Shown: piece after piece, positions 8,786 to 63,536 of the stretch
Layout: each line of letters opens with the position of its first letter
Position numbering within the stretch: the stretch's first letter is position 1
Assembly: GCA_965277805.1 (NCBI GenBank)
Contig: OZ255842.1
Span: 512,001-576,000, forward strand
Length of the DNA: 64,000 nucleotides
Origin: Candidatus Lustribacter sp.
GTDB lineage: Bacteria > Vulcanimicrobiota > Vulcanimicrobiia > Vulcanimicrobiales > Vulcanimicrobiaceae
Direction: 5' to 3'
Position numbers and translations under genes: made by a program
The notes under the pieces: generated by a model
Told to the model about the DNA's origin: nothing
What the model saw: the letters and a program-made list of their open reading frames with translations, nothing else
The model's database searches: none

Positions 8786-8828
8786 CGTGGAGGTCGCCGT
8801 TCGCCGCACCGTTGAACCGTACATTGCA

Positions 8829-9947
8829 ATGATTTCGAGTTGGCGTGACGACCCGCGTCAAGCAACGCATCCGCTCTTCAACGAGAACGCACTCAAATTG
8901 GGATTGTTCGGACTGAACGCGGGCACCCAGGCGATGACTGTCGCGCCCGGCCAGTACGTTGCCGATTGGGATCGCTGTTCCGAGATCGTCGGAATCGCCG
9001 GTGGGCTCGGTCTGGAAGCGATGGTCTCGCTGGTCAGCTGGGGTGCAAAACCCGAACTCGAACCGTTCGCGTGGGCGACCGGCCTCGGCGCGCTGCACCC
9101 CGGCCCGGCGTTCGTTTCGACGATGCACGTGCAGCTGAACCATCCGACGTTCGTAGCGAAAGCGTCGGCGACCGTGCAGGCCGTGACGCACGGCCGCTTC
9201 GCGCTCAACATCGTCGCCGGCACAAATCCGGATACGTTTCGGGCGTTCGGCGCGGCGATGGAAGATCACGAAACGCGCTACGCGCACGCCGCGGAGTTCA
9301 TGGATTTGCTGAAACGTCTTTGGACGGAAGAGGCACCGTTCGATTTTAGCGGCCGTTTCTACCAGATCCCCAAGGCGGTATCGTTGCCCCGGCCGAGCTT
9401 TGGCTTGCCGCCGATCATGAATGCCGGCACATCCGATCGCGGGCAGCACTTCGCCGCGAAATATGCCGACTTGGTGTTTACGCACGTCGAAACGGACATG
9501 GACGATGCGCGCGTCCAACTCGCGGCGATCAAGGGACTCGCGCGCCGCGAATACGGCCGCGAGGTGCAAGTCTGGACGCACGGCTACGTGGTGGTTCGCG
9601 ACACGCAAGCCGAGGCCGATGCCTTTCTGCAGTACTACGCGGTCGACCACGCGGATACCGAACGGGTCGCGCGCTGGGTGAAGACGCTCGGCGAGAACGC
9701 GCAATCACAATCCGCGGCCGAAAAGTGGAAAGTCGCGCGCAATTGGGCCGCCGGGGGCGGGGTCGACCTCGTCGGAACACCCGAAAGTATCACGGAAAAA
9801 TTGCAGGCGCTCTCGCGCGCCGGGCTCGACGGCATCTTGCTCAAGTCGATCGAACCGGAGTTCATGCTCGAACGGTTCGGCCGCGACGTTTTGCCTCGCC
9901 TCGAGCAGGCCGGTCTGCGAAAACCGAGTAAGGCGCTACCCAGCTAG
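8829..9947 (+). CDS. Luciferase-like (LLM) flavin-dependent monooxygenase
   Basis: LKLGLFGLN, HPTFVAK, GRFALNIVAG, PPIMNAGTS..GQHFAAKYAD, LVGTPE. Start ATG 8829. Confidence 0.88.
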   Translation: MISSWRDDPRQATHPLFNENALKLGLFGLNAGTQAMTVAPGQYVADWDRCSEIVGIAGGLGLEAMVSLVSWGAKPELEPFAWATGLGALHPGPAFVSTMHVQLNHPTFVAKASATVQAVTHGRFALNIVAGTNPDTFRAFGAAMEDHETRYAHAAEFMDLLKRLWTEEAPFDFSGRFYQIPKAVSLPRPSFGLPPIMNAGTSDRGQHFAAKYADLVFTHVETDMDDARVQLAAIKGLARREYGREVQVWTHGYVVVRDTQAEADAFLQYYAVDHADTERVARWVKTLGENAQSQSAAEKWKVARNWAAGGGVDLVGTPESITEKLQALSRAGLDGILLKSIEPEFMLERFGRDVLPRLEQAGLRKPSKALPS

Positions 9948-9950
9948 CAG

Positions 9951-42286: not shown

Positions 42287-43467
42287 TCTAAGGGATCCTT
42301 GACCATCGGGGTCGTTTGGAACTCGTAGTTCCCGAGCAGCCCATTGCGCCGCTCGGCGCGCATGAAGTAGGCGTTGAGGATGATGTCGCGCGTCGCGGGG
42401 TCGATGGCGATCGGGCCGCGCGGGCTCTCGAACTTCAACATCTTGACGATCTCCATCGTCTTGTCCGGGTCGATCGACCCGTGCTGCGCCTCGATGACTT
42501 TGTAGGCGGCGGCCATCGCGTCGTAGGCGGCGACGGCGATGAAGCTCGGATATTGATTGCCGCCGTATGCGGCGCGGAAGTCCTTCACGAACTGCCGGTT
42601 GAGCGCCGAGTCGTGCGTCGAGGTGTAGTCCGACGTGCTGATAATCCCGACCGCGGCGTCGCCCTCGGCCGGAAGGATCGCTTCGTTGACGAGCGCGCCG
42701 TTCACGAGCACTTTGGTGCCGGCCGCTTCGATGCCGCTCGCCTTGATCGCGCGCAAGAATTCGATGCCGCCGCCGGTGGCGTTGATGAAGGCGTAGAGCA
42801 CCTTCGGTTTGGCGTCTTTGGCGCGCTGCACATAGGCGGTGAAATCTTTGTTGTCAACCGGGATGCGCTCTTCGCCGAGTACGGTGCCGCCGCCGGCGGT
42901 GAAGGCCTTCTCGAACGTCGTGCCCGCGTCGATGCCGGGACCGTAATCCTGGAAGAGCGCGAACATCGTGTTGCCTTGCGTCTTTGCGGCCCAGCGTCCG
43001 AAGGCGTCGGTGATCTGCGCTTGGGTGAAGCCTAGGCGCGCGGTGTACGGCGCTTTGGCCATGATCCCCGACGTCGCCGCGTTGACGATGAAGAACGGGA
43101 CCTTCGCTTGCGTCGAGACCTGCGCCATCGCGATCGCGTTGGGCGTGTACGAGGTGCCGACCAGCAGGTCGACTTTGTCTTGCACGATCTCTTCCTGCGT
43201 CAGCCGGCGCGCGATCTCGGGTGCGATGCCGGTGTCGTCGCGTTTGACGAGCACGATCTTGCGCCCGCCGGCGGTGTCGCCGTGTTCTTTCTGATACGCG
43301 GCGATCGCCGCATCGAATTCCTTGCCTTGTTCGACGTTGTCGCCGCCCGAGAACGAGAACACGATGCCGATCTTGAGCGGCGCCTGCTGCGCGTACGCGG
43401 TGCCGGCGGTGACGAGGGATCCGAGCGCGGTCACAACGAGCGCGAGACGGACGAGACGCTGTCTCAT
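42283..43467 (-). CDS. ABC solute-binding protein, Liv/aromatic-compound type
   Basis: KRDDTGIAPEIARRL, DYGPGID, FESPRGPIAIDPATRD. Confidence 0.88.
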   Translation of the reverse strand: MRQRLVRLALVVTALGSLVTAGTAYAQQAPLKIGIVFSFSGGDNVEQGKEFDAAIAAYQKEHGDTAGGRKIVLVKRDDTGIAPEIARRLTQEEIVQDKVDLLVGTSYTPNAIAMAQVSTQAKVPFFIVNAATSGIMAKAPYTARLGFTQAQITDAFGRWAAKTQGNTMFALFQDYGPGIDAGTTFEKAFTAGGGTVLGEERIPVDNKDFTAYVQRAKDAKPKVLYAFINATGGGIEFLRAIKASGIEAAGTKVLVNGALVNEAILPAEGDAAVGIISTSDYTSTHDSALNRQFVKDFRAAYGGNQYPSFIAVAAYDAMAAAYKVIEAQHGSIDPDKTMEIVKMLKFESPRGPIAIDPATRDIILNAYFMRAERRNGLLGNYEFQTTPMVKDPLE

Positions 43468-43533
43468 GCAAGCCTCCAAGCCAACGCGCCGTTCGACGCG
43501 CGCACTTGCGGTCTTGCCGTGCGAAGCTCGGGT

Positions 43534-44064
43534 TTAGGCGGCGTCGTCGATGCGCGAAACGCGCGGCGTGGCGATCACGGGCGCAACGGCCGGCACGGCG
43601 GGGGCGGCCGGCAACCCGTACACCGAGCTGAAGGCCACCGGGCCGCCGATGAGCGCGACGGCGCCATAGGCTTGGACGAGTTCGCCGCCGTCGCCGTGCA
43701 GAACGGAGTCGGTGGCCGAGGGCTGCGGCGGCGCCACCGTGTTCGGGTTGACGCTCTCCGTCGCCGGGAGCGCCGTCGGACGCGCATCCGTGGTCGTGAT
43801 GCTGGTGGTCGCGGCCGTGGCGGCGGCGATCGCCGGAATGGCGGGGTTCAGGAAGGGCGGGGCGGCCGTGATCGCGGTCGCGGCGTTCCCGCGGGCGGCA
43901 ATGGCGGCTTCCGTTGCAGCGGCGCTCTTGCCGGCGGCCGCGGCCTGCGCTTCGGCGGCCGCGGCGGCGTTCGAGGCGCGCCGTACTCCGTTGAGGTACG
44001 GGCTCAACGCCGCATAGACCGGCGCCGCTCCGCTCCCGATAGGACCAATAGCCCCGACGTTCAT
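43534..44064 (-). CDS. Hypothetical Ala/Pro/Thr-rich low-complexity protein
   Basis: Fills the gap; GC3-biased; TATATT-N6-ATG upstream of 44064. Confidence 0.55.
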   Translation of the reverse strand: MNVGAIGPIGSGAAPVYAALSPYLNGVRRASNAAAAAEAQAAAAGKSAAATEAAIAARGNAATAITAAPPFLNPAIPAIAAATAATTSITTTDARPTALPATESVNPNTVAPPQPSATDSVLHGDGGELVQAYGAVALIGGPVAFSSVYGLPAAPAVPAVAPVIATPRVSRIDDAA

Positions 44065-44118
44065 AGCCTTAATATACCCACGACGGGAGCTCACCAACCA
44101 AACGCGTGGTACGAAGGG

Positions 44119-44304
44119 CTACTTGGGCGCGACCGGGCTCTTGTCGCTGTCGTGCATACCCGGCGGGAGGCCGGTCGGTTCGCTCCGGTTGGGATCGCCG
44201 GTCGCGGGCGCGATGCGCGCGCCGTTGCGGTAGCGCTCGGCCATCTCGTCGGTTGCCGTGCGCTCGGTCTCTGGTGACGGGTCGCGTTTCTTGTCATCCA
44301 TCAT
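44119..44304 (-). CDS. Small hydrophilic hypothetical protein (61 aa)
   Basis: ATG start, coding-like codon usage, fills the gap. Confidence 0.5.
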   Translation of the reverse strand: MMDDKKRDPSPETERTATDEMAERYRNGARIAPATGDPNRSEPTGLPPGMHDSDKSPVAPK

Positions 44305-44351
44305 GCCTAGCGCTTACCCAGGTTTCCGCCATCCCTCGCGAACCACGGCGC

Positions 44352-45359
44352 ATGGACAAGCAACCGGAACCATTGCGCATCGTCGCGCTCGAAGAGCACG
44401 TTTCGTTCAAGCGCTTCAACGCGGAGATCGATCCGCAAGCGATGCGAGCGCGCGGCTTTCTCGGCAACGTCGACAATTGGGCCGGTCCGCGTGTGGCCGC
44501 GCTCGACGACGGTGACGGCGAGCGCCTGCGCTCGATGGACGAAGCCGGCATCACCGTGCAAGTGCTCTCGGTCGTCGGACCGGGCGCCGATATCGTTCCA
44601 CCGGATGCTTCGCCTGATTTTGCGCGCCGGTACAACGATGAGGTGGCGCGGCTCTCGCATTCGCGGCCGGATCGCTTCGCAGCGTTTGCTCACTTGCCCT
44701 TAACGGCGCCCTCCGCGGCCGCGGATGAACTCGAACGCACGGTCCGCGAGCACGGATTCGCCGGCGCGTTGATCAACGGCGTCACCGACGGTAAGTTTCT
44801 CGACGATCCGATTTTCGAACCGGTGCTCGCGCGTGCCGAAGCGCTCGACGTGCCGCTCTACATTCATCCCGGCATTCCGCCCGAGAGCGTGCGCAAAGCC
44901 TATTACGACGGCTTCGAACCACGCATGTCGTCGGTGTTTGCGACGGCCGGCTGGGGCTGGCATGCGGAAACGGCGGTGCACGTGCTGCGCATGGTGCTCT
45001 CGGGCGCGCTCGACCGTCATCCCGGTTTGCGGCTGATCATCGGCCACATGGGGGAGGGGTTACCGACGATGCTGCAGCGCTGCGACGACACGCTCAACCA
45101 ATTCGTCAAAGACCGCAAGCGCGGCATCAGCGAAACGATCCTCGATCAGGTGACGATCACGACCAGCGGTTTCTTCGCACTGGCGCCGTTCATCGCGGGG
45201 CTGCTCACGTTCGGTGCCGACCGCATCATGTTCTCGGTCGACTACCCGTTCGCGTCGAACGCCGACGCGCGCGCCTATCTCGACATGCTTCCGGTTACGC
45301 CGAGCGACAAGATCAAGATCGCGCACGCGAACGCCGATCGCATTCTCAAACTCACCTAA
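44352..45359 (+). CDS. Amidohydrolase_2 family aromatic acid decarboxylase-like protein (gamma-resorcylate / LigW type)
   Basis: IVALEEH, YIHP, GWGWHAET, IGHMGE, MFSVDYPF. Confidence 0.88.
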   Translation: MDKQPEPLRIVALEEHVSFKRFNAEIDPQAMRARGFLGNVDNWAGPRVAALDDGDGERLRSMDEAGITVQVLSVVGPGADIVPPDASPDFARRYNDEVARLSHSRPDRFAAFAHLPLTAPSAAADELERTVREHGFAGALINGVTDGKFLDDPIFEPVLARAEALDVPLYIHPGIPPESVRKAYYDGFEPRMSSVFATAGWGWHAETAVHVLRMVLSGALDRHPGLRLIIGHMGEGLPTMLQRCDDTLNQFVKDRKRGISETILDQVTITTSGFFALAPFIAGLLTFGADRIMFSVDYPFASNADARAYLDMLPVTPSDKIKIAHANADRILKLT

Positions 45360-46621
45360 GCCGGAACGGCGGCGGCGGGCACCGGTGCCGTGCGGCCGAT
45401 GAACAGCACCATCACCGCTGCGATGATGCACAGGATGCCCGACGAGATGAAGGCCGCATCGTAGCTGCCGGTGCCCGTGCGAATCAGGCCCGCGATGAAG
45501 GCGATGCTGCTCGCGCCGAGCTGGTGGCCGGTGAAGATCCAGCCGAACATCATCGGTGCGCGCAAGCGGCCGAAGCGGTTCGTCGTGAGCTTCAGTGTCG
45601 GCGGAACCGTGGCGATCCAATCGAGACCGTAGAACACGGCGAAAATCGGCAAGCCGATGCTCGCGATGCCGAAGGCTTGCGGCAAATAGATCAGCGAGAA
45701 CCCGCGCAAGCCGTAGTACCAGAAGAGCAGCCAGCGCGCGCTGTAGCGATCGGAGAGCCAGCCCGATGCGGTCGTTCCGATCAGATCGAACACGCCCATC
45801 GCCGCGAGCAATCCGGCCGCTTGCACTTCGGGAATGCCGTGATCGCCGCAGGCCGGCACCAGATGCGTGCCGATCAAGCCGTTCGTGCTCGCGCCGCAGA
45901 TGAAGAAGCTGCCGCCGAGCAGCCAAAAATCGCGCGTGCGCAATCCGTCGCGCAGCGCGACGATCGTGTTGACGAAGGGATTGCCGGTCGAACGCTGCGG
46001 CTGCACGACCGCGGTCGCGCCGAGCATCGCGAGGTTCATGTCCGAGGGGTATTCGCGCAAGATCAAGAGCGCGAGCGGCGCCAAGATCGCGCAGACCGCT
46101 GCGATGAAGAGCACTTCGGCGCGCCAGCCGGCCCGGGTGATCAGTAGTCCGAACAACGGCAGAAAGATGAGTTGGCCCGTGGCGTTGCTCGCCGTGAGAA
46201 TGCCCATCACGGTGCCGCGATTCGTTTCGAACCAGCGGTTGACGATCGTTGCCCCGGCGACGAGGCTGATGCTGCCCGCACCGACGCCGACCATGCCGCC
46301 CCACAGCAGCAAGAACTCCCACGATTGCGTCATGAAGATCGACGCGGCCGCGGCCACGGCCATCAGCGCGAGCGCGCCCGCGATCGTGCGGCGTAAGCCG
46401 AAGCGCTCGAACACGCCGGCCGCGAACGGCCCGATCAATCCGAACAAGAGCAGGTTGAGCGCAATCGCGGCCGAGATCGTCGCCGTCGTCCAATGGAATT
46501 CGCTCTGCAGCGGTTGGATGAGCATCGTCGGCGAGGAACGCACGCCGGCGGCGGCGATCAGCAATACGAAGGCGAGCGCCGCAACGATGTAGGCGTAGTG
46601 GAGGCGGGGTCTCGGGGTCAT
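45356..46621 (-). CDS. MFS transporter
   Basis: AAGVRSSP, FFICGAST.GLIGTH, GWLSDR, WYYGLRG, FYGLDWIATVPPT, HQLGA. Confidence 0.9.
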   Translation of the reverse strand: MTPRPRLHYAYIVAALAFVLLIAAAGVRSSPTMLIQPLQSEFHWTTATISAAIALNLLLFGLIGPFAAGVFERFGLRRTIAGALALMAVAAAASIFMTQSWEFLLLWGGMVGVGAGSISLVAGATIVNRWFETNRGTVMGILTASNATGQLIFLPLFGLLITRAGWRAEVLFIAAVCAILAPLALLILREYPSDMNLAMLGATAVVQPQRSTGNPFVNTIVALRDGLRTRDFWLLGGSFFICGASTNGLIGTHLVPACGDHGIPEVQAAGLLAAMGVFDLIGTTASGWLSDRYSARWLLFWYYGLRGFSLIYLPQAFGIASIGLPIFAVFYGLDWIATVPPTLKLTTNRFGRLRAPMMFGWIFTGHQLGASSIAFIAGLIRTGTGSYDAAFISSGILCIIAAVMVLFIGRTAPVPAAAVPA

Positions 46622-46622
46622 C

Positions 46623-47537
46623 TTACGTGTGTGCGGGTCGTTTCGGGGCGACGTAGGAGAGTGCTTCGCGATCCCATCCCGCAACAGACACGCATAGCGC
46701 ATAGATCGCATCGAGGAACGCGCCGAGCTCGGCAGCCGGATCGGCGGCGGTGCGAACCGCGTCGTACGGCAGCACCCACTCCTTAATGGTGTCCGACCAT
46801 GCGGCGGTTGCAGGAGCTATCGGAAGCTCCGGTGCCTCGTCCGGTTGCGGATAGATATAGCCGTAGAAGAACGGCGCGTTCGTTTCGTCGCCGGGCCAGA
46901 AGCCGGCGTTCATCAGCTCGGCGTCGAGATCGTAGCGCAGCAAATAGCCGCGGTCGGCCGGTGCCTGCGCGTGCTTGCCGTTGAAGAGCATTAGCGAGAC
47001 GTCGAGTGCGCCCCACCAGAGCTGGATGCCGTTACGGCCGAAGAAGCGCGCGCGCCACGCATCGAAGACGCCGGCGGTCGCGGTGGCGACGCGGAACCAG
47101 CGTTCTACCGCCGCCGGATCGTACGCCGCCGGCCGGCGATCGGCGTCGAACGGCGTGACGTCGGCGACTTCTTGCGGGACCGGTGAGAGCGTCACGTCGA
47201 CGCCGAGGGCCTTCAGCGCCGCGAGGAGATCGGCATAAACGTCGGCGATCGTGGGCGCCGGAACGAGTGCGATGCGCCGGCTGCGTCCATCGCTCAACGC
47301 GAGAACGAGTTCCGAGGAGAAGACGTCGAGCGAGCCCTCGAGCGATCGTCCGTGCCAGGGCATCGGGCCGGTCGTGATGCCGTGCGCCGTCAGATACAGT
47401 GCGGTGAACATCCAGTTCGGCTGCGGCGGCGACAAAGCGACGCGCAACTTGCCGAGCATCTGCGTGTAGAGATGCAGGCTCTTCTTCGTCGGCGCCCACG
47501 CCTTCGGATCGAGTTCGGGCCAGACGACGTCGCTCAC
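46623..47537 (-). CDS. DUF5996-family protein
   Basis: WPEL...W..T...LHLYTQMLGK, GITTGP, LWWGALD, AGFWPG, FYGYIYPQP, LPYDAVR. Confidence 0.8.
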   Translation of the reverse strand: MSDVVWPELDPKAWAPTKKSLHLYTQMLGKLRVALSPPQPNWMFTALYLTAHGITTGPMPWHGRSLEGSLDVFSSELVLALSDGRSRRIALVPAPTIADVYADLLAALKALGVDVTLSPVPQEVADVTPFDADRRPAAYDPAAVERWFRVATATAGVFDAWRARFFGRNGIQLWWGALDVSLMLFNGKHAQAPADRGYLLRYDLDAELMNAGFWPGDETNAPFFYGYIYPQPDEAPELPIAPATAAWSDTIKEWVLPYDAVRTAADPAAELGAFLDAIYALCVSVAGWDREALSYVAPKRPAHT

Positions 47538-47545
47538 GTGCAGCG

Positions 47546-48493
47546 TCAGGGTTTCACGGCGGCCGGGCTGATGATGTCGGCGGCGGGAAAGGAGTGCTCG
47601 ATCAACGCGTACTTGGCAGCGATGTCGATCAGCGGTTGCAGCGCACGCGGGTCGAGGTACGCGGCGCTCAGGGCGCGATGGCTTTGACGGATCGAATCCG
47701 GCGTTGCGCCCGTGAAGCCGGCAACGATGTCGACGGTCTGGTCCGGATGCGTATTCGTGAAGACCGTCGCCTCGTGCATCGCGCGCGCGAAGCGTTCGTA
47801 GACGTCGCGATTGGCATCGACCGTGGGCGCGAGAACGGCGAAGCCCGCGGTGTCGACCGGCGTGCCGAGGACGCTGTAGGGATGGGCGAGTTCGCGCACC
47901 TGGCCCGATGAGAGCGCCTGACTCGCGAGCGGATCGGTGAGCATCACGACATCGGCACGATGCTGCTCGAGTAAGCCGAGCCCGGCCGACGCCGGCGTCT
48001 CGATCTGCTGGATCGTTTTCGAATCGCCGCCGGTCTTATCGACCCAGTACATGAAGATCGCCGAATTGATGTCGTGGAGCGCCGGCGAGGCAAAGGTCTT
48101 GCCGGTGAGATCGCGAGCGTTCGCGATCGGGGAGTCTTTCAAGACGAGAACTTTGGACAGCGAGTTCTTCGCGGTCGTATAGCCGCCCGGCGTGAGATAT
48201 TGGATCGGGATGCTGTGCGCGCGCGCCTGAATGACGATCGCGGTGTTGGTAAATGCAACCTCCGCTCCGCCCCCGCTCAACGCGGCGGCGGCAGCAGCTC
48301 CGTTGGCGACGAGCGAGGTCTGCACGTCGAGCCCGTACTTGCGGAAGATGCCGGATTTGACGCCGTAGAACACGCTCGTGAACCCGTCGTTGGCCGGCCC
48401 GATCACGCGCACCGTGGCGAGCGTCTGGCCGTCGAGCGGTGCCGTGCTTCCGAGCAGGATCAGACCCAATACGAGCGCGAGCAAACGCAGCAT
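47546..48493 (-). CDS. ABC solute-binding protein, NitT/TauT type
   Basis: GIFRKYGLDV, NGAAAAAALSGG, ARDLTGKT, QPLIDIAAKY. Confidence 0.85.
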   Translation of the reverse strand: MLRLLALVLGLILLGSTAPLDGQTLATVRVIGPANDGFTSVFYGVKSGIFRKYGLDVQTSLVANGAAAAAALSGGGAEVAFTNTAIVIQARAHSIPIQYLTPGGYTTAKNSLSKVLVLKDSPIANARDLTGKTFASPALHDINSAIFMYWVDKTGGDSKTIQQIETPASAGLGLLEQHRADVVMLTDPLASQALSSGQVRELAHPYSVLGTPVDTAGFAVLAPTVDANRDVYERFARAMHEATVFTNTHPDQTVDIVAGFTGATPDSIRQSHRALSAAYLDPRALQPLIDIAAKYALIEHSFPAADIISPAAVKP

Positions 48494-49618
48494 CTACGCC
48501 GTCCCCCAGATCTCGCGCGCCACGTCGGCGACGAGGGTCAGCTTGCGTCGCTGACGCTCGTACGACGCCTCGTCGAACGCACGCGCTGCGGTCGAGAAGC
48601 CGCATTGCGGTGAAAGCGCGAGTTGTTCGAGCGGCGCGTACTGCGCGGCTTCCTCGATGCGCCGCTTGATCTCATCGGCCGTTTCCACGTGCGGTGATTT
48701 CGAGGAGACGAGGCCGAGCACGACGCGTTTGCCGGGCGGGAGATGACGCAGCGGCTCGAACGAGCCGGCGCGCGGTCCGTCCCACTCGAGCAGATACGCG
48801 CCGATCTCGCAGTGGTTGAAGAGGGCGTCTGCGATCGGCTCGTAGCTGGTGTCGGCTTGCCAACTCGGGTCTTGGCTGCGGCAGACGTGCATGGCGATGC
48901 GCATGCCGGCCGGGGCATCGCGCACCACGCGGTTGATCGCGTCGATGTAGACGCGCAAGAGGTCCTGCCAATCGTCGCCGCGCGCGGTCAGCAATGCCTG
49001 CGCGCGCGGATCGCCGAGTTTGACGAGCGAGGTTTCGTCCAGCTGGACGTACCTGCAGCCGGCCGCCGCGAGCGTGGTCAGTTCGTGGCGGTACGCCGCG
49101 ACGATATCCGACCAGAAGTCGTCGAGGTTGGGATAGATCTCGCGGCTGATATTCGCGGGACCGGCGCGGTAATGAATGAACGCCGGACCGGGCAGCGTGA
49201 CCTTCACGGTGCGGTCCGTCACGGACCGGGTGAACGCAAAGTCGGTTGCATTCGCGTTCCCGTGCGCTTCGATCCGGGCTTCGACGGCCGGAATGCGGCG
49301 CGCCGTGCGATGCCCGTGGTCAGCCGACGGGGTCCAGCCCGCGTCTTCGGTCATGACCATCCGAACGCCGGAGAAGCCGTCGCCGATCAGGAAATCGGAG
49401 TACGAATTGCGGCGGTATTCACCGTCGGTAACGACGCCGAGGCCGGCGTCTTCTTGCAAGCGGACGATCGTGCGAATCGATTCGTCCTCGATCGCCCGCA
49501 GCGCCGCCGCGTCGATGCGGCCGGCGTCGAAATCAGCGCGTGCGCGCAGCAGCTCGGGCGGACGCAGGAGGCTGCCGACGTGATCGGCACGGAACGCCGG
49601 CGCAGCCGCGGTTATCAT
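48494..49618 (-). CDS. Cobalamin-independent methionine synthase II family protein (second paralog)
   Basis: FRADHVGSLLRP, TDGEYRR, VQLDE, MHVCRSQ, LLEWD, SPQCGFST. Start ATG 49618. Confidence 0.88.
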   Translation of the reverse strand: MITAAAPAFRADHVGSLLRPPELLRARADFDAGRIDAAALRAIEDESIRTIVRLQEDAGLGVVTDGEYRRNSYSDFLIGDGFSGVRMVMTEDAGWTPSADHGHRTARRIPAVEARIEAHGNANATDFAFTRSVTDRTVKVTLPGPAFIHYRAGPANISREIYPNLDDFWSDIVAAYRHELTTLAAAGCRYVQLDETSLVKLGDPRAQALLTARGDDWQDLLRVYIDAINRVVRDAPAGMRIAMHVCRSQDPSWQADTSYEPIADALFNHCEIGAYLLEWDGPRAGSFEPLRHLPPGKRVVLGLVSSKSPHVETADEIKRRIEEAAQYAPLEQLALSPQCGFSTAARAFDEASYERQRRKLTLVADVAREIWGTA

Positions 49619-49705
49619 TTCCGCAACATAGCTCAAATTCCGGACGTCGTCTAGGCTTGGTGCGATGATTCGCACCGCGGCGGCGCGGGGAAAGAGACGG
49701 GCACA

Positions 49706-50731
49706 ATGGAGAATCGCGCAACACGGATCTTTACGCCCGAATTCCGGTTCGGTCTCGGCGGCGTGCCCCTCGGCAACGAGTTCAACAAGCATACGGATGC
49801 GGAAGCGCAAGCCACGCTCGAGACGGCATGGGAACTCGGCGTTCGCTACTTTGACGTCGCGCCGTGGTACGGCTTCGGCCTCGCCGAACGGCGATTCGGG
49901 CATTTTCTCCACGCAAAAAAGCGCGATGAGTACGTGCTCTCATCGAAGGTCGGCAAGTTATTTCGCGCGTCGAAAAACAACCGGCACGCGGAGATCTATC
50001 CGTTCTCGGATTCGCCGAACGATCTGGTCATCGACTATTCGGCGGACGGCGTCCGCCGCTCGATCGAGGATAGCCTTCAACGGCTCGGCATCTCGCATCT
50101 CGACGTGGTGTTCGTTCACGATCTGTCGCCCGATTTCGCGTGGTTCCCGACCGGCTGGGAAGAACAGTATGAGATCGCGCGCCGGGGCGCGTTTCCTGCC
50201 CTCTCGAAGCTGCGTGACGAAGGAGTGATCGGCGCCTGGGGCGTCGGCGTCAACACGCCGATGGCGATTCTCAAGGTGATCGAAGACGCCGATCCCGACG
50301 TGTGTTTGTGCGCGCGTCAATATTCGCTGATCGATCACGCCGGTGCGCTGCACGACGTCTTTCCGGCGGTCCGCGCACGGAACGTCTCGCTGGTCATCGG
50401 ATCCTCGCTCAACGCCGGTTTCATTTCCGGTAGCCCGCGTTTCAACTACGGCCAGAAGAACTTCGAGATTCCGGCGGAGGCGATCGCGAAGCGCGACCGG
50501 CTCCGCGCCGTCGCGGCAGGTTTCGGTATCGATCTGCGCACTGCCGCGCTGCAATTCTCCGCCGCCGCATCCGAAGCGGTCGCGCTCGTCGTGGGCGCCC
50601 GCAGCGGACAGCAAATCTCGGAAGACTACAATTCCATGCAAGCGAAGATTCCGGCCGCTTTTTGGGCAGAGCTCAAGGCGCAGCGGCTCATCGAGCCGGA
50701 TGCCGGGTTGCCCCCGGCGCCTACGTCCTAA
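49706..50731 (+). CDS. Aldo/keto reductase (D-threo-aldose 1-dehydrogenase-like)
   Basis: GLGGVPLGN, RYFDVAPWYG, LSSKVG, DYSADG..RSIEDSLQRLG, FVHD. Confidence 0.9.
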   Translation: MENRATRIFTPEFRFGLGGVPLGNEFNKHTDAEAQATLETAWELGVRYFDVAPWYGFGLAERRFGHFLHAKKRDEYVLSSKVGKLFRASKNNRHAEIYPFSDSPNDLVIDYSADGVRRSIEDSLQRLGISHLDVVFVHDLSPDFAWFPTGWEEQYEIARRGAFPALSKLRDEGVIGAWGVGVNTPMAILKVIEDADPDVCLCARQYSLIDHAGALHDVFPAVRARNVSLVIGSSLNAGFISGSPRFNYGQKNFEIPAEAIAKRDRLRAVAAGFGIDLRTAALQFSAAASEAVALVVGARSGQQISEDYNSMQAKIPAAFWAELKAQRLIEPDAGLPPAPTS

Positions 50732-51563
50732 CGGAAACGCGCTTCAGCAACCGCCGCTGCCCGGCATTAAAGTCGTTGCGGGCGTGCGTTACGCAACGGT
50801 TATCCCAAATGACCGTGTCGCCCGGCCGCCACGCGTGCACGTACACATCCGCACAGCGTTCGATAAAGCCGAAGAGTTCTTCGAGAATCGCGTCGCTCTC
50901 GGCTTCCGGCAACTCGAGGATCCGTTCGGTCATCAAACGGCAAATGAACAAGGCATCCTCGCCGGTAACTTCATGCCGGCGCACGACCGGTTGCACCGCC
51001 CGTGGCGCCTTCTCGTCGCGAACCTTCATGCTGCGATCGGTCGCCGTATAGTCGTAGACGTTGAGCGCGGTGAGCCCCCTCAACTTTTGCTGCAGCGATT
51101 CCGGCAGCGAAGCGAAGACGCTGCACATGTTCGCAAACCGCGTCTCGCCGCCGCTCGCGGGTACCTCGATCGCGTGCAAGATCCCGCCCGTATACGGCGT
51201 GGGCTGATGCAAGCCGTCGTAGTGCCAATCCATCTCGCCGTCCGGCAAGCTGCCGAGCGCGACGCCGTCATCATCGCGAATGTTCGAGATGATCATGATC
51301 TCCGGCCGCACCCCGAGCGGCGACCGCATCGCTTTCGAAACGAGCACCGGCCCGAACGACGACGCGAAGTCTACCTGCGCATCTTCGCTCAACGGAACGT
51401 CGCGCAAGACGAGCACGTGATGCCGATGCCAAGCAGCACGTAAGGCCGCTCGATCCGCATCCGAAATCGAGGCAGGATCAAACCCGGAAATCAACCCGCC
51501 GATCCGCGGCGTCAGCGCGGCAGCATCGATCCGGCTACCGCTGCTCAGGTTCGTCTGCATCAT
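50721..51563 (-). CDS. TauD/TfdA-family 2-oxoglutarate-dependent dioxygenase
   Basis: WHYD, GGETRFA, WRPGDTVIWDNRCVTHAR, RLLKR. Confidence 0.9.
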   Translation of the reverse strand: MMQTNLSSGSRIDAAALTPRIGGLISGFDPASISDADRAALRAAWHRHHVLVLRDVPLSEDAQVDFASSFGPVLVSKAMRSPLGVRPEIMIISNIRDDDGVALGSLPDGEMDWHYDGLHQPTPYTGGILHAIEVPASGGETRFANMCSVFASLPESLQQKLRGLTALNVYDYTATDRSMKVRDEKAPRAVQPVVRRHEVTGEDALFICRLMTERILELPEAESDAILEELFGFIERCADVYVHAWRPGDTVIWDNRCVTHARNDFNAGQRRLLKRVSVRT

Positions 51564-56571: not shown

Positions 56572-57462
56572 GTGCATCAGATTACGGGCCTTGTGGCCGG
56601 TACCACGCGCTTTCCCAGATACGATGCGGCAACGCTGGGCTTCGAAGAGTATTGGTATCCGGTAATGTGGTCGCAAGACCTTCGCGCGAAGCCCGTTGCG
56701 CTCTCGCTGTTCGGACGGCGGTTCGTGTTTGCGCGCGTCAACGGCGTCGCCCGCGCGCTGCCGGCGTGTGCGGTCGAGGAATGTGCCGGTCTCGTGTGGG
56801 TGTACAACGGCAACGGCGAACCGCGCCCGCTGCGCGCGCAAGTGCCGGAAGAATTGCTGCACGCGGATGCCGTGATCGAGGGACGCATCACCACGCGTAA
56901 GGGCGACTGGCGCTATGCAGCCGAGAACGGCTTCGATGAAGGGCACGTCAAGTTTCTTCATCGCGATGCCTGGCTGGTAACGTTTACGCACATTCCGAGC
57001 TACTCGACGGTGGCCGTGCACGGCGAGAGCGAGAACGATCCGTGGATCACACGCAACGTGTCGGCCGTGGGCTTCGAGGCCAATTATCCGGGGCTCGGCG
57101 AGTGGCCGAAGAAGCGGTTTTGGAAGCGTAAGAAACGCGGTGTGCGCGTGTCGATTCGCATGCCGGGAATGCTGCGCGTGCACTACGGCGACTGGATTCA
57201 TTTCGAGACCTACGTCCCAACCGTTCCCGGCGAACACCGCTATCTGCAGATCGCGATGAGCCACGCGCGCGGCTGGCAGGCGGCAAAGTTCCGGGCGTTT
57301 TACCGCGGCTACTTGTCGTGGATCTTTCACCGTCAGTTCAACGATCAGGATGCGGCGATGGTGGAGCTGATGCAGACGCCGCCCGAGCAGCTCTACCGGC
57401 CCGACATCTCCTTGATCGAGTGGCGGCGCATGTGTGAAACGCAGATCGGAGTGGGTTCATGA
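56572..57462 (+). CDS. CarAa/OxoO-like aromatic oxygenase catalytic subunit lacking the Rieske [2Fe-2S] motif
   Basis: LGFEEYWYPV, DWRYAAENGFDEGHVKFLH, FNDQD, PDISLIEWRR; no CxH...CxxH anywhere; SD GGAG 7 nt before GTG. Confidence 0.75.
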   Translation: MHQITGLVAGTTRFPRYDAATLGFEEYWYPVMWSQDLRAKPVALSLFGRRFVFARVNGVARALPACAVEECAGLVWVYNGNGEPRPLRAQVPEELLHADAVIEGRITTRKGDWRYAAENGFDEGHVKFLHRDAWLVTFTHIPSYSTVAVHGESENDPWITRNVSAVGFEANYPGLGEWPKKRFWKRKKRGVRVSIRMPGMLRVHYGDWIHFETYVPTVPGEHRYLQIAMSHARGWQAAKFRAFYRGYLSWIFHRQFNDQDAAMVELMQTPPEQLYRPDISLIEWRRMCETQIGVGS

Positions 57463-58958
57463 ACACCGTGGTGCTGAAGAACGCGCACGTCATCGACCCG
57501 GCCAACGATCGCAACGGCGTGATGGACGTGGCGATCGACGACGGCACGATCTCGTCGGTCGGTGCCGCTGCGGTGCCCGCGGGCGCAGAGATCATCGATC
57601 TCGCCGGCGCGTATCTCTCGCCCGGCTGGATCGACGCGCACGTGCACGCGTACGGAACGCTCGGTTTTGCCGATCCGGACAGCATCGGGGTCTACCAGGG
57701 CGTGACGACGTTCGTCGAAGCCGGCGGACCGGGTGTCGGCACGCTCGATGAGTTCATCGCGACGATGGCGGACCGTACGCTGACGAGCCTCTACGCGGGC
57801 GTGTACATCCGGCCGCTTGGAATCATCGGGCTGACGTTCATCGAAGACGACGTGCGCAATTGGCTCGACGTACCGGTGGAGCGCTGGATCGATACGGTCG
57901 CGCAGCATCGCGATCTCATCCGGTATCTCAAGATCGGCGCGTTCGCGAAGTACGGACCGGGCCCGCTGAAGCTCGCCAAGGGGCTGGCCGAGACGCTCGA
58001 CGTCCCGCTGTACTGCCACATCGGCGAATTCGCGGCGACGACCGGCGAAGTGGGCTCGCACGACATCTTCCGCATCGCCGAGGCCGGCGACATGATCACG
58101 CATCTCTACAACCGCAACCTCGGCGGCGTGCTCGATGACGACGGCCGCGTGCGCGACGTCGTCTGGGAGGCGCACAAGCGCGGCGTGCTCTTCGACATCG
58201 GCTTCGGCGGTTACAACTTCTCGTGGGACGTTGCCGAACGCGCGTACGCCCAGGGTCTCGTGCCGCACTTGATCAGTTCCGACCTGCAGCAATTCAACGT
58301 CACGGGTCCGGTATTTTCGCTAGCTAACGTGCTCGCCGTGTTCCTGCGGCTCGGCATGCCGCTGCGCGACGTGATCGCGTGCGTGACGGCCAACCCGGCC
58401 CGCGCGTTGCGGCTGACCGATCGCGCCGGCAGCTTGCGCGCGGGAGCGCCGGCGGATATCACGGTGTTCCGGGTGGTGGACGAAGCGGTCACGCTGGCCG
58501 ATTGTCATTCGGTGACGCGCACGGGCGATCGCGTCGTTCGTCCGGTGATGACGTACAAGAACGGCGTGCGCGTGGATGCCGACCTGGAACGCTGCCAGGA
58601 TGAAGCGAATTGGTTCATGCAGGTGCTCGACGAGCGCTGGCCCGCGGCCGCACACACGTTTTCAGATCGGCAACGCGCATTTCTGCGCGCACTGGTACCC
58701 GAACTCGAAGGGATCGACTGGCACTTGGAATCTGCGAAACAGCAAGACATCCGCACGGCGACGCGCCTGCAAGCCGCCGTGCACGCGGCGAAAGACCGTA
58801 CGGGCTTGAGTTTGCGCGAGACGCTTGCGACCGTGTACGGCTCTTTCATCGAGCAGCCGTTCTCGATCCAGGTCGGGCTCTTTCTGCTCCGGATCGAGCG
58901 CGCGTTCGCGCTCGAACGCATGCGCGAGATCGGTGCGAGCTCGGTGGTGCCCGTATGA
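57459..58958 (+). CDS. Dihydroorotase/deacetylase-like metallo-amidohydrolase with an extra C-terminal helical domain
   Basis: VIDPAN, SPGWIDAHVH, GVTTFVEAG, YLK, CHIG, ITH, ISSD, VTANPA, G.PADITV; about 120 aa C-terminal extension. Confidence 0.85.
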   Translation: MNTVVLKNAHVIDPANDRNGVMDVAIDDGTISSVGAAAVPAGAEIIDLAGAYLSPGWIDAHVHAYGTLGFADPDSIGVYQGVTTFVEAGGPGVGTLDEFIATMADRTLTSLYAGVYIRPLGIIGLTFIEDDVRNWLDVPVERWIDTVAQHRDLIRYLKIGAFAKYGPGPLKLAKGLAETLDVPLYCHIGEFAATTGEVGSHDIFRIAEAGDMITHLYNRNLGGVLDDDGRVRDVVWEAHKRGVLFDIGFGGYNFSWDVAERAYAQGLVPHLISSDLQQFNVTGPVFSLANVLAVFLRLGMPLRDVIACVTANPARALRLTDRAGSLRAGAPADITVFRVVDEAVTLADCHSVTRTGDRVVRPVMTYKNGVRVDADLERCQDEANWFMQVLDERWPAAAHTFSDRQRAFLRALVPELEGIDWHLESAKQQDIRTATRLQAAVHAAKDRTGLSLRETLATVYGSFIEQPFSIQVGLFLLRIERAFALERMREIGASSVVPV

Positions 58959-59794
58959 CCGCCACGGCGACGATTCCGCCGAGCAAGTACGCCGAGATCG
59001 GCGACGGCCTTCGCATTCACTATCACGAGGTCGGAAATGGCCCGGCGCTGATCTGTCTGCACGGTGCGGGCCCCGGCGCGACGGCATGGAGCAATTTCCA
59101 GGGCAACCTCGCCGCGCTCGCGGCGAACCATCGCGTGTATCTCGTGGACATGCCGCAATTCGGCAAGTCCAGCAAGCCCGTCATCACCGGACCGCGCCTG
59201 ACCGCGTTCACCGGCATGATCGAGGCCTTCATGCGCTCCGCCGGGATCGAGCGCGCTGATTTTATCGGCAACTCGTTCGGCGGTCAGGTGTCGCTGAAGA
59301 TGGCGATCGACTTTCCGGACCGCGTGAATCGCGTCGTGATCATCGGCAGCACGCCGGTTGCGATCAGCGCGATCTCGCCGATGCCTGCCGAAGGCGTGCG
59401 CCTCATCGCCAATTACTATCGCGGCGAAGGCCCGTCGCTCGAAAAGCTGCGTTATCTACTCTCAACGCTCGTCTACGATGCGAGCAATCTCAGCGAGAGC
59501 GTGTTGAAGGAGCGCTACGAAACGAGCCTCGATCCCGAGTTGATCAAGGTGAATACGGGGCCGCGACCGGAGTACGAAGACCTGACGATGGAGTTCAAGC
59601 GCATCAAGGCGCCGACGCTGATCGTCTGGGGCGCCGAGGATCGCGCCGGCCCGATCGACGTGGCGCTCTTCATGGTCCGCGCGATTCCGAATGCCCGCAT
59701 GCACGTGTTCAATAAGTGCGGCCACTGGGCGCAAGTCGAGTGCGTCGATGAATTCAACGAGCTGGTGCTCGCGTTTTTCAACCGCCCGGCATGA
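58955..59794 (+). CDS. Meta-cleavage product C-C hydrolase (BphD/MhpC/CarC/HsaD family)
   Basis: LHGAGPGATAWSNF, GNSFGG, WGAEDR, CGHWAQVE. Confidence 0.9.
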   Translation: MTATATIPPSKYAEIGDGLRIHYHEVGNGPALICLHGAGPGATAWSNFQGNLAALAANHRVYLVDMPQFGKSSKPVITGPRLTAFTGMIEAFMRSAGIERADFIGNSFGGQVSLKMAIDFPDRVNRVVIIGSTPVAISAISPMPAEGVRLIANYYRGEGPSLEKLRYLLSTLVYDASNLSESVLKERYETSLDPELIKVNTGPRPEYEDLTMEFKRIKAPTLIVWGAEDRAGPIDVALFMVRAIPNARMHVFNKCGHWAQVECVDEFNELVLAFFNRPA

Positions 59795-60120
59795 ATGCAG
59801 CCGGATCGTGGGAACGGCTGGAGATCGATCCGAGCTCGGCCACGTTTCCGGCGCCGGCGACCGTTGCCGGCGAACCGATTTGGGTGTTTGCGGTGGGCGA
59901 CGGCTTCCGCGGCGTGCAAGAGATGTGCCCGCACGAACGGCGCAGCTTGGGTGAAGCGCGGCTGGTGGGCGACGCGAAGATGGTGCGCTGTGCATACCAC
60001 AACTACACCTTCAAGCTGAGCAACGGCGGCGGCGTGAACTGCCCCGGCTTTCGCATCGCCGTGTACGCGATCAAAGAAGAAGACGGCGCGCTGTTCGCGC
60101 AGCCCGTACCGGCTAGCTGA
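59791..60120 (+). CDS. Stand-alone Rieske [2Fe-2S] protein
   Basis: CPH-x18-CAYH; 109 aa; ATGA overlap with the hydrolase. Confidence 0.88.
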   Translation: MNAAGSWERLEIDPSSATFPAPATVAGEPIWVFAVGDGFRGVQEMCPHERRSLGEARLVGDAKMVRCAYHNYTFKLSNGGGVNCPGFRIAVYAIKEEDGALFAQPVPAS

Positions 60121-61471: not shown

Positions 61472-62095
61472 TTAGTACGGCGGGGTAAGCCCGTCTTTGC
61501 CGACTTGGATCGAGCTCGTCGTGAGGTTGCCGTCGGCGCCGGGAACTGCGCCGAAGATGAGGACGTGCGCCCCCACGGTGAGCGCGGACTTATCGGCGGG
61601 CTCGAAGGTAACGACGGGTACATTTGAGGGAACGAAGACCTTCTTCTCCGTGTCCTTGTATTTCACAATCATCGTCTGACCCGAAACCTTATCTACGGTC
61701 TCCGGCGCGATGGTCGTGACCGTGGCATTGGTCATCGAACTGTTGGGAAGCGAATCCCACTTTTGGCTGCCTTCGCCGGCTCCGCGACTCGCCTCGAGGA
61801 AAATCTGCACTTCGGTTGCGCGCAGCGAACCGTCCGGTTGCGCGATTGCAACCGTTCCGACGTAGGTGTTCGGCCCGATTTTCGATAGGTCCGATTTGAC
61901 GACGTATTGGATGCGCGCGTTGTCGGGTAGCGTGACCTTGTAGGACGATGCCGCACCCTGAATGGTTACCACGCCGCCGGCGAATGACGTAATCGTGCCG
62001 CGAACGCGGACGGGTGCGGGAGCTTGTGCAAACGCAGCCGCCCCAAAGGCGACCGTGAGCATCAAGGCTGAGAGAAGTGAAGCAATGCGAGACAT
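61472..62095 (-). CDS. Secreted hypothetical protein (DUF5666/OB-fold-like)
   Basis: Signal peptide; RVRGTI, QPDGSLRATEVQIF, GEG...WD....SMTNATV, KDGLTPP. Confidence 0.75.
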   Translation of the reverse strand: MSRIASLLSALMLTVAFGAAAFAQAPAPVRVRGTITSFAGGVVTIQGAASSYKVTLPDNARIQYVVKSDLSKIGPNTYVGTVAIAQPDGSLRATEVQIFLEASRGAGEGSQKWDSLPNSSMTNATVTTIAPETVDKVSGQTMIVKYKDTEKKVFVPSNVPVVTFEPADKSALTVGAHVLIFGAVPGADGNLTTSSIQVGKDGLTPPY

Positions 62096-62175
62096 ACAAA
62101 TTTCCATTCTACGGCCGAGCGCGGAGCACTGCCGTTGACGCGATTGCTGTGAAAACCTGAGAAAAGACTGAAAGA

Positions 62176-62802
62176 TCAGCCGCGTTCCCCGAGCCACGCA
62201 GCGATATCGGCGATCTCACGGCGCGAAATGCTATGATCGATCGGGTAGGTATGCTCGCTGAGGTCGGCGCCGCTGCGATCGCGCAGATACTGTAGCGACT
62301 GCGCAATACGATCGGGCGGGATGACGCCGTCAAACGAACCGTGGGCCACGAAGACAGGCACGCCCGCAAGACGATCGGGCGTTGCCGTTCCGGTGTCGAC
62401 GGCGATCGAGCCGCTCAAGAGAACGGCGCCGGCAAGCCGTGCCGGGTCGTCGAGCAGCAGTGCAGCGGCCGTCATCATCCCTTGGCTGAAGCCGAGCACG
62501 AAGGTGCGCTTGCGGTCGTACTCGGCAGTCGCGGGGCTGTCGAGCCACGTGCGCAGCATGTCGACCGTGCTCTGTATGCTCGCGGGGACCGGGCGTCCGA
62601 TACCGCGATCTTCGAACCAGCGGTAGCCGCCTTCCGGCAGCGCGATGGGACCGCGCACGCTTGCGTAGGCAAACTCGCGCGGAAGTTCCGGCGCAAGATC
62701 GATCAGATCGTTCTCGTCCGCGCCACGCCCGTGCAGCAAAACCAGAAGCGGCGTAGAGTTGCTGCGCCTCGCGGGTCGGCGCCAGACGACGATGGGTTCC
62801 AT
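62176..62802 (-). CDS. Phospholipase/carboxylesterase (alpha/beta hydrolase)
   Basis: LLHGRGADE, GFSQG, HGSFDGVI, IDHSIS; SD AAGGAG. Confidence 0.9.
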   Translation of the reverse strand: MEPIVVWRRPARRSNSTPLLVLLHGRGADENDLIDLAPELPREFAYASVRGPIALPEGGYRWFEDRGIGRPVPASIQSTVDMLRTWLDSPATAEYDRKRTFVLGFSQGMMTAAALLLDDPARLAGAVLLSGSIAVDTGTATPDRLAGVPVFVAHGSFDGVIPPDRIAQSLQYLRDRSGADLSEHTYPIDHSISRREIADIAAWLGERG

Positions 62803-62969: not shown

Positions 62970-63536
62970 TTGAGCACGCCGGCCGCAAGCGCGCCAAGTG
63001 AGCTCGACGGCGTCGCCCGCCGCATTCATGCGATGCGCCGTCAGAGGAAATTTAGCTTGGACGATCTGGCCAAGCGCACCGGCCTGACCAAAAGCTTCCT
63101 CTCGAAGATCGAGCGCGGTGTCAGCATCCCGTCGATCGCAACCATCCTGAAGCTCGCGCAGGCGTTTGATGTCGATGTCGCTCATGTTTTCGGCCACGCC
63201 GTCGAAAGCGAGAGCATCTGCATCGAGCGAGCGCGCGCGTCGAAAAAGAGCGGCGGGCGCCTGAATCTCCTCCCGATCGCCGGTAAGCGGGCGCAGAAGA
63301 ACATGTCCCCGTTCATCATGTACCCCACCCCGGAAGGCGAGGAGCGCTTCAACGAACATGCTGGCGAGGAATTTCTCTATGTGCTGCGCGGGGAGATCGA
63401 GATGGAGTTCGCCGACCGCAAGGTGCGGCTGAAAGCCGGCGACAGTATTTATTTCGAAGGTCATCTCCTCCACCGCCAACGGTCGATCGGCGCCGACGCT
63501 GCGACCCTAATCGTTATCGAAGGGACGAATTCGTAA
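62970..63536 (+). CDS. XRE-family HTH + cupin transcriptional regulator (PuuR/SutR-like)
   Basis: SLDDLAKRTGLTKSFLSKIERG..PSI, HAGEEFLYVLRG, GDSIYF...H. Confidence 0.9.
   Translation: MSTPAASAPSELDGVARRIHAMRRQRKFSLDDLAKRTGLTKSFLSKIERGVSIPSIATILKLAQAFDVDVAHVFGHAVESESICIERARASKKSGGRLNLLPIAGKRAQKNMSPFIMYPTPEGEERFNEHAGEEFLYVLRGEIEMEFADRKVRLKAGDSIYFEGHLLHRQRSIGADAATLIVIEGTNS

Follow-up and report, generated by a model that had tools for sequence, protein, structure and literature searches.

How can an oxygenase of the Rieske class be maintained once its Rieske centre has gone? Enzymes of this class are defined by an obligatory relay, in which electrons pass from an internal Rieske centre across the subunit interface to the catalytic iron. 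The window analysed here, a stretch of 64,000 nucleotides from Candidatus Lustribacter sp. (contig OZ255842.1, positions 512,001 to 576,000), carries a four-gene operon at positions 56572-60120 whose first product lacks the start of that relay. This product, P0001 (56572-57462, plus strand), is a 296-residue oxygenase alpha subunit of the CarAa/OxoO family. It is followed on the same strand by genes for a 499-residue metal-dependent amidohydrolase of the PRK09237/EF_0837 type (P0002, 57459-58958), a 279-residue alpha/beta hydrolase of the type acting on meta-cleavage products (MCP) at a C-C bond (P0003, 58955-59794) and a 109-residue CarAc-like Rieske-type [2Fe-2S] ferredoxin (P0004, 59791-60120). 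In outline, these four kinds of protein had been recognised in a preliminary description made from the sequence alone, and the domain matches bear this out. Within aromatic catabolism, the operon represents a derived offshoot of a CarA-type system, like that of carbazole dioxygenase. We propose that the ferredoxin supplies the missing Rieske centre to the oxygenase in trans, in convergence with the NdmCDE demethylase, and we put the probability of this reading at roughly 0.45.

P0001 has no match to the Rieske profile PF00355 in a profile search, and a motif search did not find the CxH-x(14-22)-CxxH ligand pattern. The protein does match PF11723, 'homotrimeric ring hydroxylase', over residues 78-288 (77 bits against a cut-off of 24.4). 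In alignments with intact relatives, an in-frame deletion has removed about 55 residues that carry both the CxH and the CxxH ligand pairs. Up to this gap, P0001 can be aligned with the intact relatives and with CarAa through its N-terminus and the opening strands of the Rieske fold; beyond it, the alignment picks up again at the final strands of the domain. By profile alignment, the gap corresponds approximately to residues 65-121 of CarAa from strain J3. P0001 is nevertheless not devoid of the domain. In its AlphaFold2 (AF2) model, which has a predicted local distance difference test score (pLDDT) of 89.9 and a predicted template-modelling score (pTM) of 0.88, a remnant of the Rieske beta-sandwich is seen at residues ~27-79 with a pLDDT of 97-98. 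The earlier label 'Rieske-less', which we keep for convenience, is therefore accurate for the cluster-binding loops, which are gone, but not for the fold, part of which is still there. A Foldseek search with this model returned CarAa first (query-normalised template-modelling (TM) score of 0.76-0.79, E 6e-21) and OxoO second (TM 0.76, E 8e-18), with NdmB at a TM score of 0.54. At the sequence level P0001 is about 22% identical to CarAa and about 20% identical to OxoO. Automatic annotation labels the Rieske-less proteins as ordinary 'dioxygenase large subunits'.

The catalytic iron site is kept. Residues D122, H125, H130 and D260 are invariant in all 62 aligned family members, the 12 Rieske-less ones included, and form the pattern Asp-x2-His-x4-His...Asp, with the bridging D122, an Asp that in this class normally connects the iron site to a Rieske centre, retained in a DEGH motif. 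We take H125, H130 and D260 to be the 2-His-1-carboxylate ligands of the iron, on the alignment and the usual motif. Of the alignment columns with a conservation of 90% or more across 50 intact relatives, 34 are changed in at least three of the 12 Rieske-less sequences. The deleted segment accounts for 32 of these; just two, at positions 71 and 128, lie elsewhere. Moreover, the intact sisters P0010 and P0013 are 80-81% identical to P0001 over the aligned columns. With so few changes outside the deletion and such close intact sisters, the pocket and the chemistry of P0001 look unchanged.

Selection on the gene was assessed through the ratio of non-synonymous to synonymous substitution rates (dN/dS), calculated by the Nei-Gojobori method for five Rieske-less genes, those of the window and of loci L009, L011, L090 and L091. 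All ten pairs gave values between 0.105 and 0.204. Between the window and L009 oxygenases, the ratio stands at 0.085 for the catalytic domain and at 0.54 for the remnant of 60 codons. The three closest Rieske-less forms share the left boundary of the deletion, so that the window and L009 genes had already lost their Rieske loops when they diverged. All deletions are in frame and no stop codon occurs in any of the 12 Rieske-less sequences. The possibility that P0001 is a pseudogene was rejected on these two grounds, the substitution ratios and the integrity of the reading frame. The catalytic domain of P0001 is kept by selection. An iron domain that is complete, held by selection and unaltered by comparison with its sisters leads us to regard P0001 as an oxygenase that would still need two electrons per turnover. 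The partner genes are maintained as well (dN/dS between window and L009 of 0.106 for P0002, 0.052 for P0003 and 0.195 for P0004). With values of 0.05-0.20 for all four genes, the operon is not a decayed copy of a known pathway, an outcome that the preliminary description had foreseen as fatal to its proposal.

Loss of the Rieske loops is not confined to the window. Relatives of P0001 numbered 295 in a search of 5.8 billion proteins, and the best 120 of them were listed; the ligand motif was checked in 56 of these 120 and proved to be present in 41 and missing in 15. Two of the 15 are set aside, P0105 because of an apparent N-terminal frameshift and P0116 because its N-terminus is truncated, which leaves 13 genuine Rieske-less forms, the window's included. 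What remains of the deleted segment differs from one form to the next: P0016 has CPLCG...CSH where intact proteins have CPHRG...CRYH, P0012 retains 'RPH' and the distal part, P0009 retains 18 distal residues and the window form 3. P0016, a metagenomic sequence, looks like an intermediate in decay, its first motif having exchanged His for Leu and its second being shortened to CSH. A quick tree of 54 rows (P0007-P0059 plus P0126, without P0105 and P0116), from which the deleted columns were excluded, required seven changes of Rieske state. A more careful tree of 32 rows, comprising an 18-member clade and its 14 nearest relatives, required six (bootstrap 5-95% range, 5-6), and at least three of the changes are forced by well-supported branches alone. 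In none of 200 bootstrap trees did the Rieske-less rows form one group. The 18-member clade itself holds 11 Rieske-less and 7 intact proteins, interspersed. The Rieske loops have been lost repeatedly within one clade; their re-insertion by recombination would be a less parsimonious account. Outside the 18-member clade, Rieske-less forms are P0025, P0126 and a gene of a Chloroflexia metagenome-assembled genome (MAG), L024:7001-7897. The latter is 42% identical, keeps DEGH...H and NDED and has no CxH/CxxH; in its vicinity the partner genes of the window are all absent. The family is found in 4 of the 401 genomes of the phylum that were sampled, and the nearest records are labelled Eremiobacterota/Vulcanimicrobiota MAGs.

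The protein that might make good the loss is encoded by the last gene of the operon. P0004 matches PF00355 with 35.5 bits (cut-off, 20.3); its best relative in the PDB is CarAc (1vck, E 2e-6), and T4moC is also among its best PDB matches. The cluster ligands, C46-P-H48 and C67-x-x-H70, are invariant in all 25 aligned homologues, as are G81-V-N-C84-P-G86, which contains a fifth cysteine, and Y72-T-F. P0004 falls well below the cut-offs of the curated ferredoxin equivalogs HcaC (29.3 against 113) and AndAb (24.2 against 150), and is therefore a ferredoxin outside any named subfamily. An origin by fission of an oxygenase gene was considered and rejected: the 31% identity over 62 residues between P0004 and the Rieske domain of P0013 amounts to generic fold similarity.

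The ferredoxin gene is tied to that of the oxygenase both by the reading frames and by conservation. ATGA stop/start overlaps occur at 57459, 58955 and 59791, that is, at all three junctions, just as first described, and couple the four genes translationally into a single operon. The search for the same synteny in other genomes, which the preliminary description had suggested, found it in full in two of them and in part at three loci. L009 (identical to L089) and L010 have the whole six-gene arrangement, flanking genes included, at 83-99% protein identity. The open reading frames (ORFs) of L009, at 7001-7936, 7933-9432, 9429-10268 and 10265-10597, show the same 4-nt overlaps. At L010:4331-11822 the amidohydrolase, hydrolase and ferredoxin genes are intact, and the esterase, oxygenase and amidase genes are each broken into several frames; as neighbouring genes are fragmented along with the oxygenase, sequencing error fits this pattern, although decay is also possible there. 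L090 has the oxygenase and the amidohydrolase on a contig that stops 1 kb after the oxygenase. L091 has, all on the plus strand, the oxygenase, amidohydrolase, ferredoxin and, in fourth place, the orthologue of the window's amidase P0006, without the MCP hydrolase. In L011, three genes stand in a row, for a binding protein, for a LigB-type dioxygenase and, only 5 bp behind the latter, for the Rieske-less oxygenase; a divergent operon encodes the amidohydrolase (58%), the ferredoxin (55%), a hydrolase and an intact oxygenase. Conservation in other genomes, together with purifying selection on all four genes, places the arrangement beyond chance.

A gene resembling that of P0004 lies within 7 kb of five of the seven Rieske-less loci (window, L009, L010, L091 and L011); none was found near L024. 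When oxygenase and ferredoxin clusters were matched by the length of their longest contig, only P0016 with P0146 (8084) and P0020 with P0147 (14799) could be paired, a link too indirect to weigh in a comparison with the close intact sisters. For a comparison with intact relatives, neighbours were counted around 140 distinct oxygenase genes with a complete N-terminus (loci L009-L168, within the fetched flanks), leaving out L089, which is identical to L009, and L010, where the match is split. A P0004-like ferredoxin lies within 7 kb of 3 of the 5 Rieske-less genes and 2 of the 135 intact ones, and a P0002-like amidohydrolase neighbours 4 of 5 and 3 of 135, respectively. The bias is reversed for the LigB-type dioxygenase (1/5 against 92/135), the P0003-like hydrolase (1/5 against 91/135) and an M20 deacylase (0/5 against 99/135). 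Members of the family thus reside as a rule in a cassette made up of an M20/ArgE-DapE-type deacylase, the oxygenase, an MCP hydrolase and an MhpB-like LigB dioxygenase. The LigB enzymes beside the intact relatives and the L011 gene score best against models of 3-carboxyethylcatechol 2,3-dioxygenase, though always under the curated cut-offs, for example 131-143 against 286.

How would electrons then reach the iron of P0001? In the scheme that we favour, P0004 would draw them from a reductase whose gene lies outside the operon and hand them straight to the mononuclear iron of P0001. Supply in trans is supported by the invariance of the P0004 ligands, by the selection acting on this gene, by its ATGA coupling and by its linkage to Rieske-less oxygenase genes, at a far higher rate than to intact ones. 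Phe14 of P0001, invariant in 18 close relatives, aligns with Trp15 of CarAa, a residue named as a ferredoxin contact in the solved complex in a 2025 review (PMC12445004). A complex prediction with three P0001 chains and one P0004 chain scored 0.00 and was counted as evidence neither way. More tentatively, a two-protein design in which the iron is reduced directly by a free ferredoxin may have arisen several times in this one small clade.

There is a precedent for such a division of labour. NdmC, of the NdmCDE N7-demethylase of Pseudomonas putida CBB5, which acts in caffeine degradation, has no Rieske cluster and is thought to be served by the extra one of NdmD (PMC4408171); it has been described as the first oxygenase reported to be separated from its Rieske domain. 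The window operon shares with this system a catalytic iron subunit without a Rieske cluster and a Rieske cluster on a partner encoded nearby, the two presumably acting together. It differs in that the trans Rieske centre would sit on a free CarAc-like ferredoxin instead of a reductase-fused domain as in NdmD; longer, fused relatives of P0001, of 519-2000 residues, were looked for and none was found, which is weak evidence. Furthermore, P0001 keeps a remnant of the Rieske fold, the Rieske loops have been lost more than once among proteins whose intact sisters are about 80% identical, and P0001 is of a different family, with no match to NdmA or NdmB at E <= 0.01 (NdmC was compared by description only).

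Several points weigh against our proposal. In the native CarAa-CarAc pair, the ferredoxin reduces the Rieske centre of the oxygenase and not its iron; direct transfer from P0004 to the iron of P0001 is a prediction, to which we would give slightly less than an even chance. No GST-like protein of the NdmE type was found among the operon neighbours or the ORFs scanned between 38.8 and 64 kb. The contrast in ferredoxin linkage is one between distant intact relatives and a set of Rieske-less loci that are kin and not independent of one another. Linkage is also seen with intact oxygenases, at L011 and L093, and must therefore predate the loss of the Rieske loops. Finally, P0004 is the genome's only ferredoxin of its type (the next match is 30% identical), and it could be kept to serve an intact paralogue of the oxygenase instead.

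Such a paralogue, 55-63% identical to P0013, is present in all four genomes that have a Rieske-less gene (G000, G401, G402 and G403). In the source genome it lies at G000:C1:12169-13269, in a cassette with genes for a LysR regulator, an M20-like deacylase, a hydrolase, a LigB dioxygenase, a binding protein and an isochorismatase-type amidase; no ferredoxin gene was found in this cassette. The paralogue raises the possibility that P0001 works only in its company, in a mixed trimer or a stacked alpha3/alpha'3 hexamer, the Rieske centre of the paralogue reducing the iron of P0001 and the ferredoxin docking on the intact subunits. Electrons in Rieske oxygenases normally cross to the iron of the neighbouring subunit, and alpha3/alpha'3 heterohexamers are known, as stated in the 2025 review (PMC12445004); in addition, the supercluster at L011 in G403 holds both oxygenases and the ferredoxin. 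The constant co-occurrence, however, is not independent evidence, because the four genomes are close kin. The two proteins are only about 55-58% identical, and in the source genome their genes are 556 kb apart. Complementary degeneration of the paralogue was looked for and rejected, for it keeps its Rieske ligands as well as a complete iron site, and the mark of an obligate partnership is thus missing. We consider a mixed assembly unlikely.

Two further explanations dispense with the supply of electrons to P0001 altogether. The preliminary description had suggested possible ring cleavage by the Rieske-less enzyme itself, without external electrons; in its broader form, this idea has P0001 cleaving a catechol or aminophenol ring, or carrying out a peroxide-driven reaction, and feeding the product to P0003. 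Extradiol dioxygenases use the same 2-His-1-carboxylate motif as is seen in P0001, and the repeated loss of the internal Rieske centre implies that it is dispensable. Cleavage by P0001 would also explain why an MCP-type hydrolase occurs without an extradiol dioxygenase in the 25 kb scanned. Against this, the catalytic domain has no changes specific to Rieske-less forms at conserved positions, the bridging Asp122 is retained, the intact sisters remain about 80% identical and the operon still includes, under selection, the gene of a Rieske ferredoxin. Moreover, at L011 a LigB dioxygenase lies directly upstream of the Rieske-less gene, and at L091 the Rieske-less gene does without an MCP hydrolase. 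Electron-free chemistry is thus disfavoured, and we judge it improbable. The other explanation, to which we attach even less credence and which we regard as very improbable, holds that P0001 is an inactive relic, a non-catalytic binding or scaffold protein, or a gene in the course of being lost. An enzyme would normally not survive without an obligatory cofactor site, the remnant domain does evolve faster (the ratio of 0.54 over n=60 codons given above), the family is as rare as 4 genomes in 401, and the L010 oxygenase has an apparent frameshift. But the catalytic domain is constrained in all ten pairs (0.085-0.20), the iron ligands do not vary, the 12 Rieske-less reading frames are undamaged, L009 keeps its translational coupling, and in L010 the neighbours are fragmented too.

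If P0001 is indeed an oxygenase supplied in trans by P0004, what might the operon degrade? The constant partner of the Rieske-less gene is the amidohydrolase with an extra domain, present at six of the seven loci (counting the window and L010), and the amidase is a partner in the window, L009, L010 and L091. Since amidohydrolase and amidase accompany the Rieske-less gene, and a deacylase and an amidase occur in the intact cassette, an aromatic with amide or acyl groups is suggested, and the substrate is probably an amide-bearing aromatic. The N-heteroaromatic substrate and the lactam opening of the preliminary description have as their sole basis an identity of about 22% to the oxygenases of carbazole and 2-oxoquinoline, too little to establish an N-heterocycle as the substrate. 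P0001 would hydroxylate or oxidatively dealkylate an aromatic bearing amide or ester bonds, and P0002, the neighbouring amidase and the esterases would strip acyl or amide groups. P0003 would hydrolyse a ring-fission product made by an extradiol dioxygenase of the LigB type, whose gene would stand at another place in the genome; such an enzyme is presumably used, because P0003 has all the hallmarks of a C-C ring-fission hydrolase.

These hallmarks are as follows. P0003 aligns over its full length (residues 7-276) with BphD (2og1, E 6e-58) and likewise with HsaD and MhpC (1u2e, E 1e-53); its GNSFGG, WGAEDR and CGHW align with GNSMGG, WGRDDR and CGHW of BphD, the Ser, Asp and His motifs, whose residues we take to play their usual roles in a Ser-Asp-His triad. 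It stays under the equivalog cut-offs of HsaD (260 against 400) and BphD (205 against 462), and we class it by its sequence as a member of the MCP hydrolase family that is neither HsaD nor BphD itself. P0002 is matched end to end by NF006689 over residues 3-375 (340 bits, just below the curated cut-off of 371) and, in the PDB, by 8wzy over residues 20-369 (E 3e-58) as well as by 2ogj and 2ics. At 499 residues it exceeds the canonical length of about 380 by an extra helical C-terminal tail of about 125 residues (376-499; window 58584-58958). The tail is conserved in homologues down to 56% identity, with the invariant motifs C379-Q-D, N384-W-F and G473-L-F-L, and has no match in Pfam or the PDB. 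An AF2 model of P0002 built from an alignment of six rows reached a mean pLDDT of only 47, too poor for a fold search, with residues 403-493 helical. By analogy with NdmE, one may speculate that the tail mediates assembly. A language model found stand-alone 'Anticodon_2' proteins as look-alikes of the tail (0.90), which is a lead only.

Among known systems, the nearest is carbazole 1,9a-dioxygenase (CarAa, CarAc and CarAd, with the LigB-type CarBaBb and CarC). P0001 is closest to CarAa in both sequence and fold, the nearest relative of P0004 is CarAc, P0003 falls into one MCP hydrolase group with CarC and BphD (1j1i was matched), and the intact relatives of P0001 adjoin a LigB-type dioxygenase and an MCP hydrolase. 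Unlike the car system, the window operon has an oxygenase that lacks the Rieske centre and is only distantly similar to CarAa (~22%), contains no extradiol dioxygenase or reductase, and is joined by additional enzymes, namely the amidohydrolase of PRK09237 type, the amidase and the esterases. The 2-oxoquinoline 8-monooxygenase OxoO/OxoR belongs to the same homotrimeric PF11723 family as P0001, but OxoO carries a Rieske centre itself and is reduced by a reductase without a ferredoxin in between. In the MhpB/MhpC pair, the likeness is that the LigB enzymes near family members score best with MhpB-type models and that P0003 aligns with MhpC; the window operon, however, has no such dioxygenase. 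The PRK09237/EF_0837 amidohydrolase-deacetylases match the core of P0002 from end to end, and the extra C-terminal domain sets P0002 apart from them. Thus the system resembles both the three-component CarA-type oxygenases and NdmCDE and is a member of neither. Full-text literature searches, with subscription journals and supplements outside their scope, returned no description of it, in agreement with its having been called a candidate undescribed system; on oxygenases without a Rieske centre they gave nothing beyond NdmC, and they gave no report of Rieske-less CarAa-type ones, nor are these mentioned in the accessible part of the 2025 review (PMC12445004). Should our proposal be correct, this would be the second split Rieske oxygenase, evolved independently of NdmCDE, and the first to be served by a diffusible ferredoxin. 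The pairs of Rieske-plus and Rieske-less proteins at about 80% identity constitute a natural experiment on the route of electrons to the iron and on the need for an internal centre, and they could guide the construction of minimal or re-wired oxygenases for biocatalysis.

The absence of an extradiol dioxygenase and of a reductase from the operon, noted at the outset, was confirmed: neither family was found in Pfam scans of the 20 ORFs of at least 123 residues (19 of at least 180) between 38.8 and 64 kb. Genome-wide there are 19 LigB-family matches, the sole one inside the window being at 280-747 (a LigB enzyme of the genome is encoded at G000:C1:15440-16324), and two matches to NAD_binding_1 (FNR-type), neither in the window; Reductase_C has no match in the genome. 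The load of aromatic-oxidation genes in the source genome is unusually large for the lineage, and a search of the genome with P0004 found 35 Rieske domains in frames of 353-669 residues and five small Rieske frames. With many Rieske and LigB matches against two FNR-type and no Reductase_C matches, many oxygenases appear to share very few reductases.

The operon is flanked, as originally reported, by a divergent esterase gene and a convergent amidase gene. The former encodes the type-B carboxylesterase P0005 (55046-56533, minus strand; PF00135, 357 bits), separated from the operon by a 38-bp gap; its position is kept in L009 (89%) and in L010, where it is fragmented. The latter encodes the amidase-signature amidase P0006 (60113-61465, minus strand; PF01425, 228 bits). 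The stops of the ferredoxin gene (plus strand) and the amidase gene (minus strand) lie in an 8-bp tail-to-tail overlap at 60113-60120, which leaves no space for a terminator between the convergent units. The amidase gene belongs to a three-gene unit on the minus strand that converges on the operon. Its first gene, at 62176-62802, encodes an Abhydrolase_2 carboxylesterase (PF02230, 73 bits) with a weak MhqD-like match (58 bits against a cut-off of 325). The second, upstream of the amidase gene at 61472-62197, is a conserved ORF of 241 residues without a Pfam match and with only a sub-threshold match to ExtJ. Both are kept at the same position in L009 and L010. On the plus strand, a gene at 62970-63536 encodes an XRE-type helix-turn-helix (HTH) and cupin protein (PF01381 and PF07883, with a weak PuuR-like match) and is a candidate local regulator.

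Further upstream, a second catabolic patch extends over 38844-46711. It comprises genes for a Rieske oxygenase of the LigXa_C type (38844-40115), a molybdopterin hydroxylase large subunit (40112-42286), a periplasmic binding protein, an Amidohydro_2 enzyme (44106-45359) and a major facilitator superfamily (MFS) transporter. A row of minus-strand genes at 46623-51563 encodes a DUF5996 protein, an NMT1-like binding protein, a Meth_synt_2-like protein and a TauD-family dioxygenase. Binding proteins of the NMT1-like kind are met again beside the intact oxygenase cassettes.

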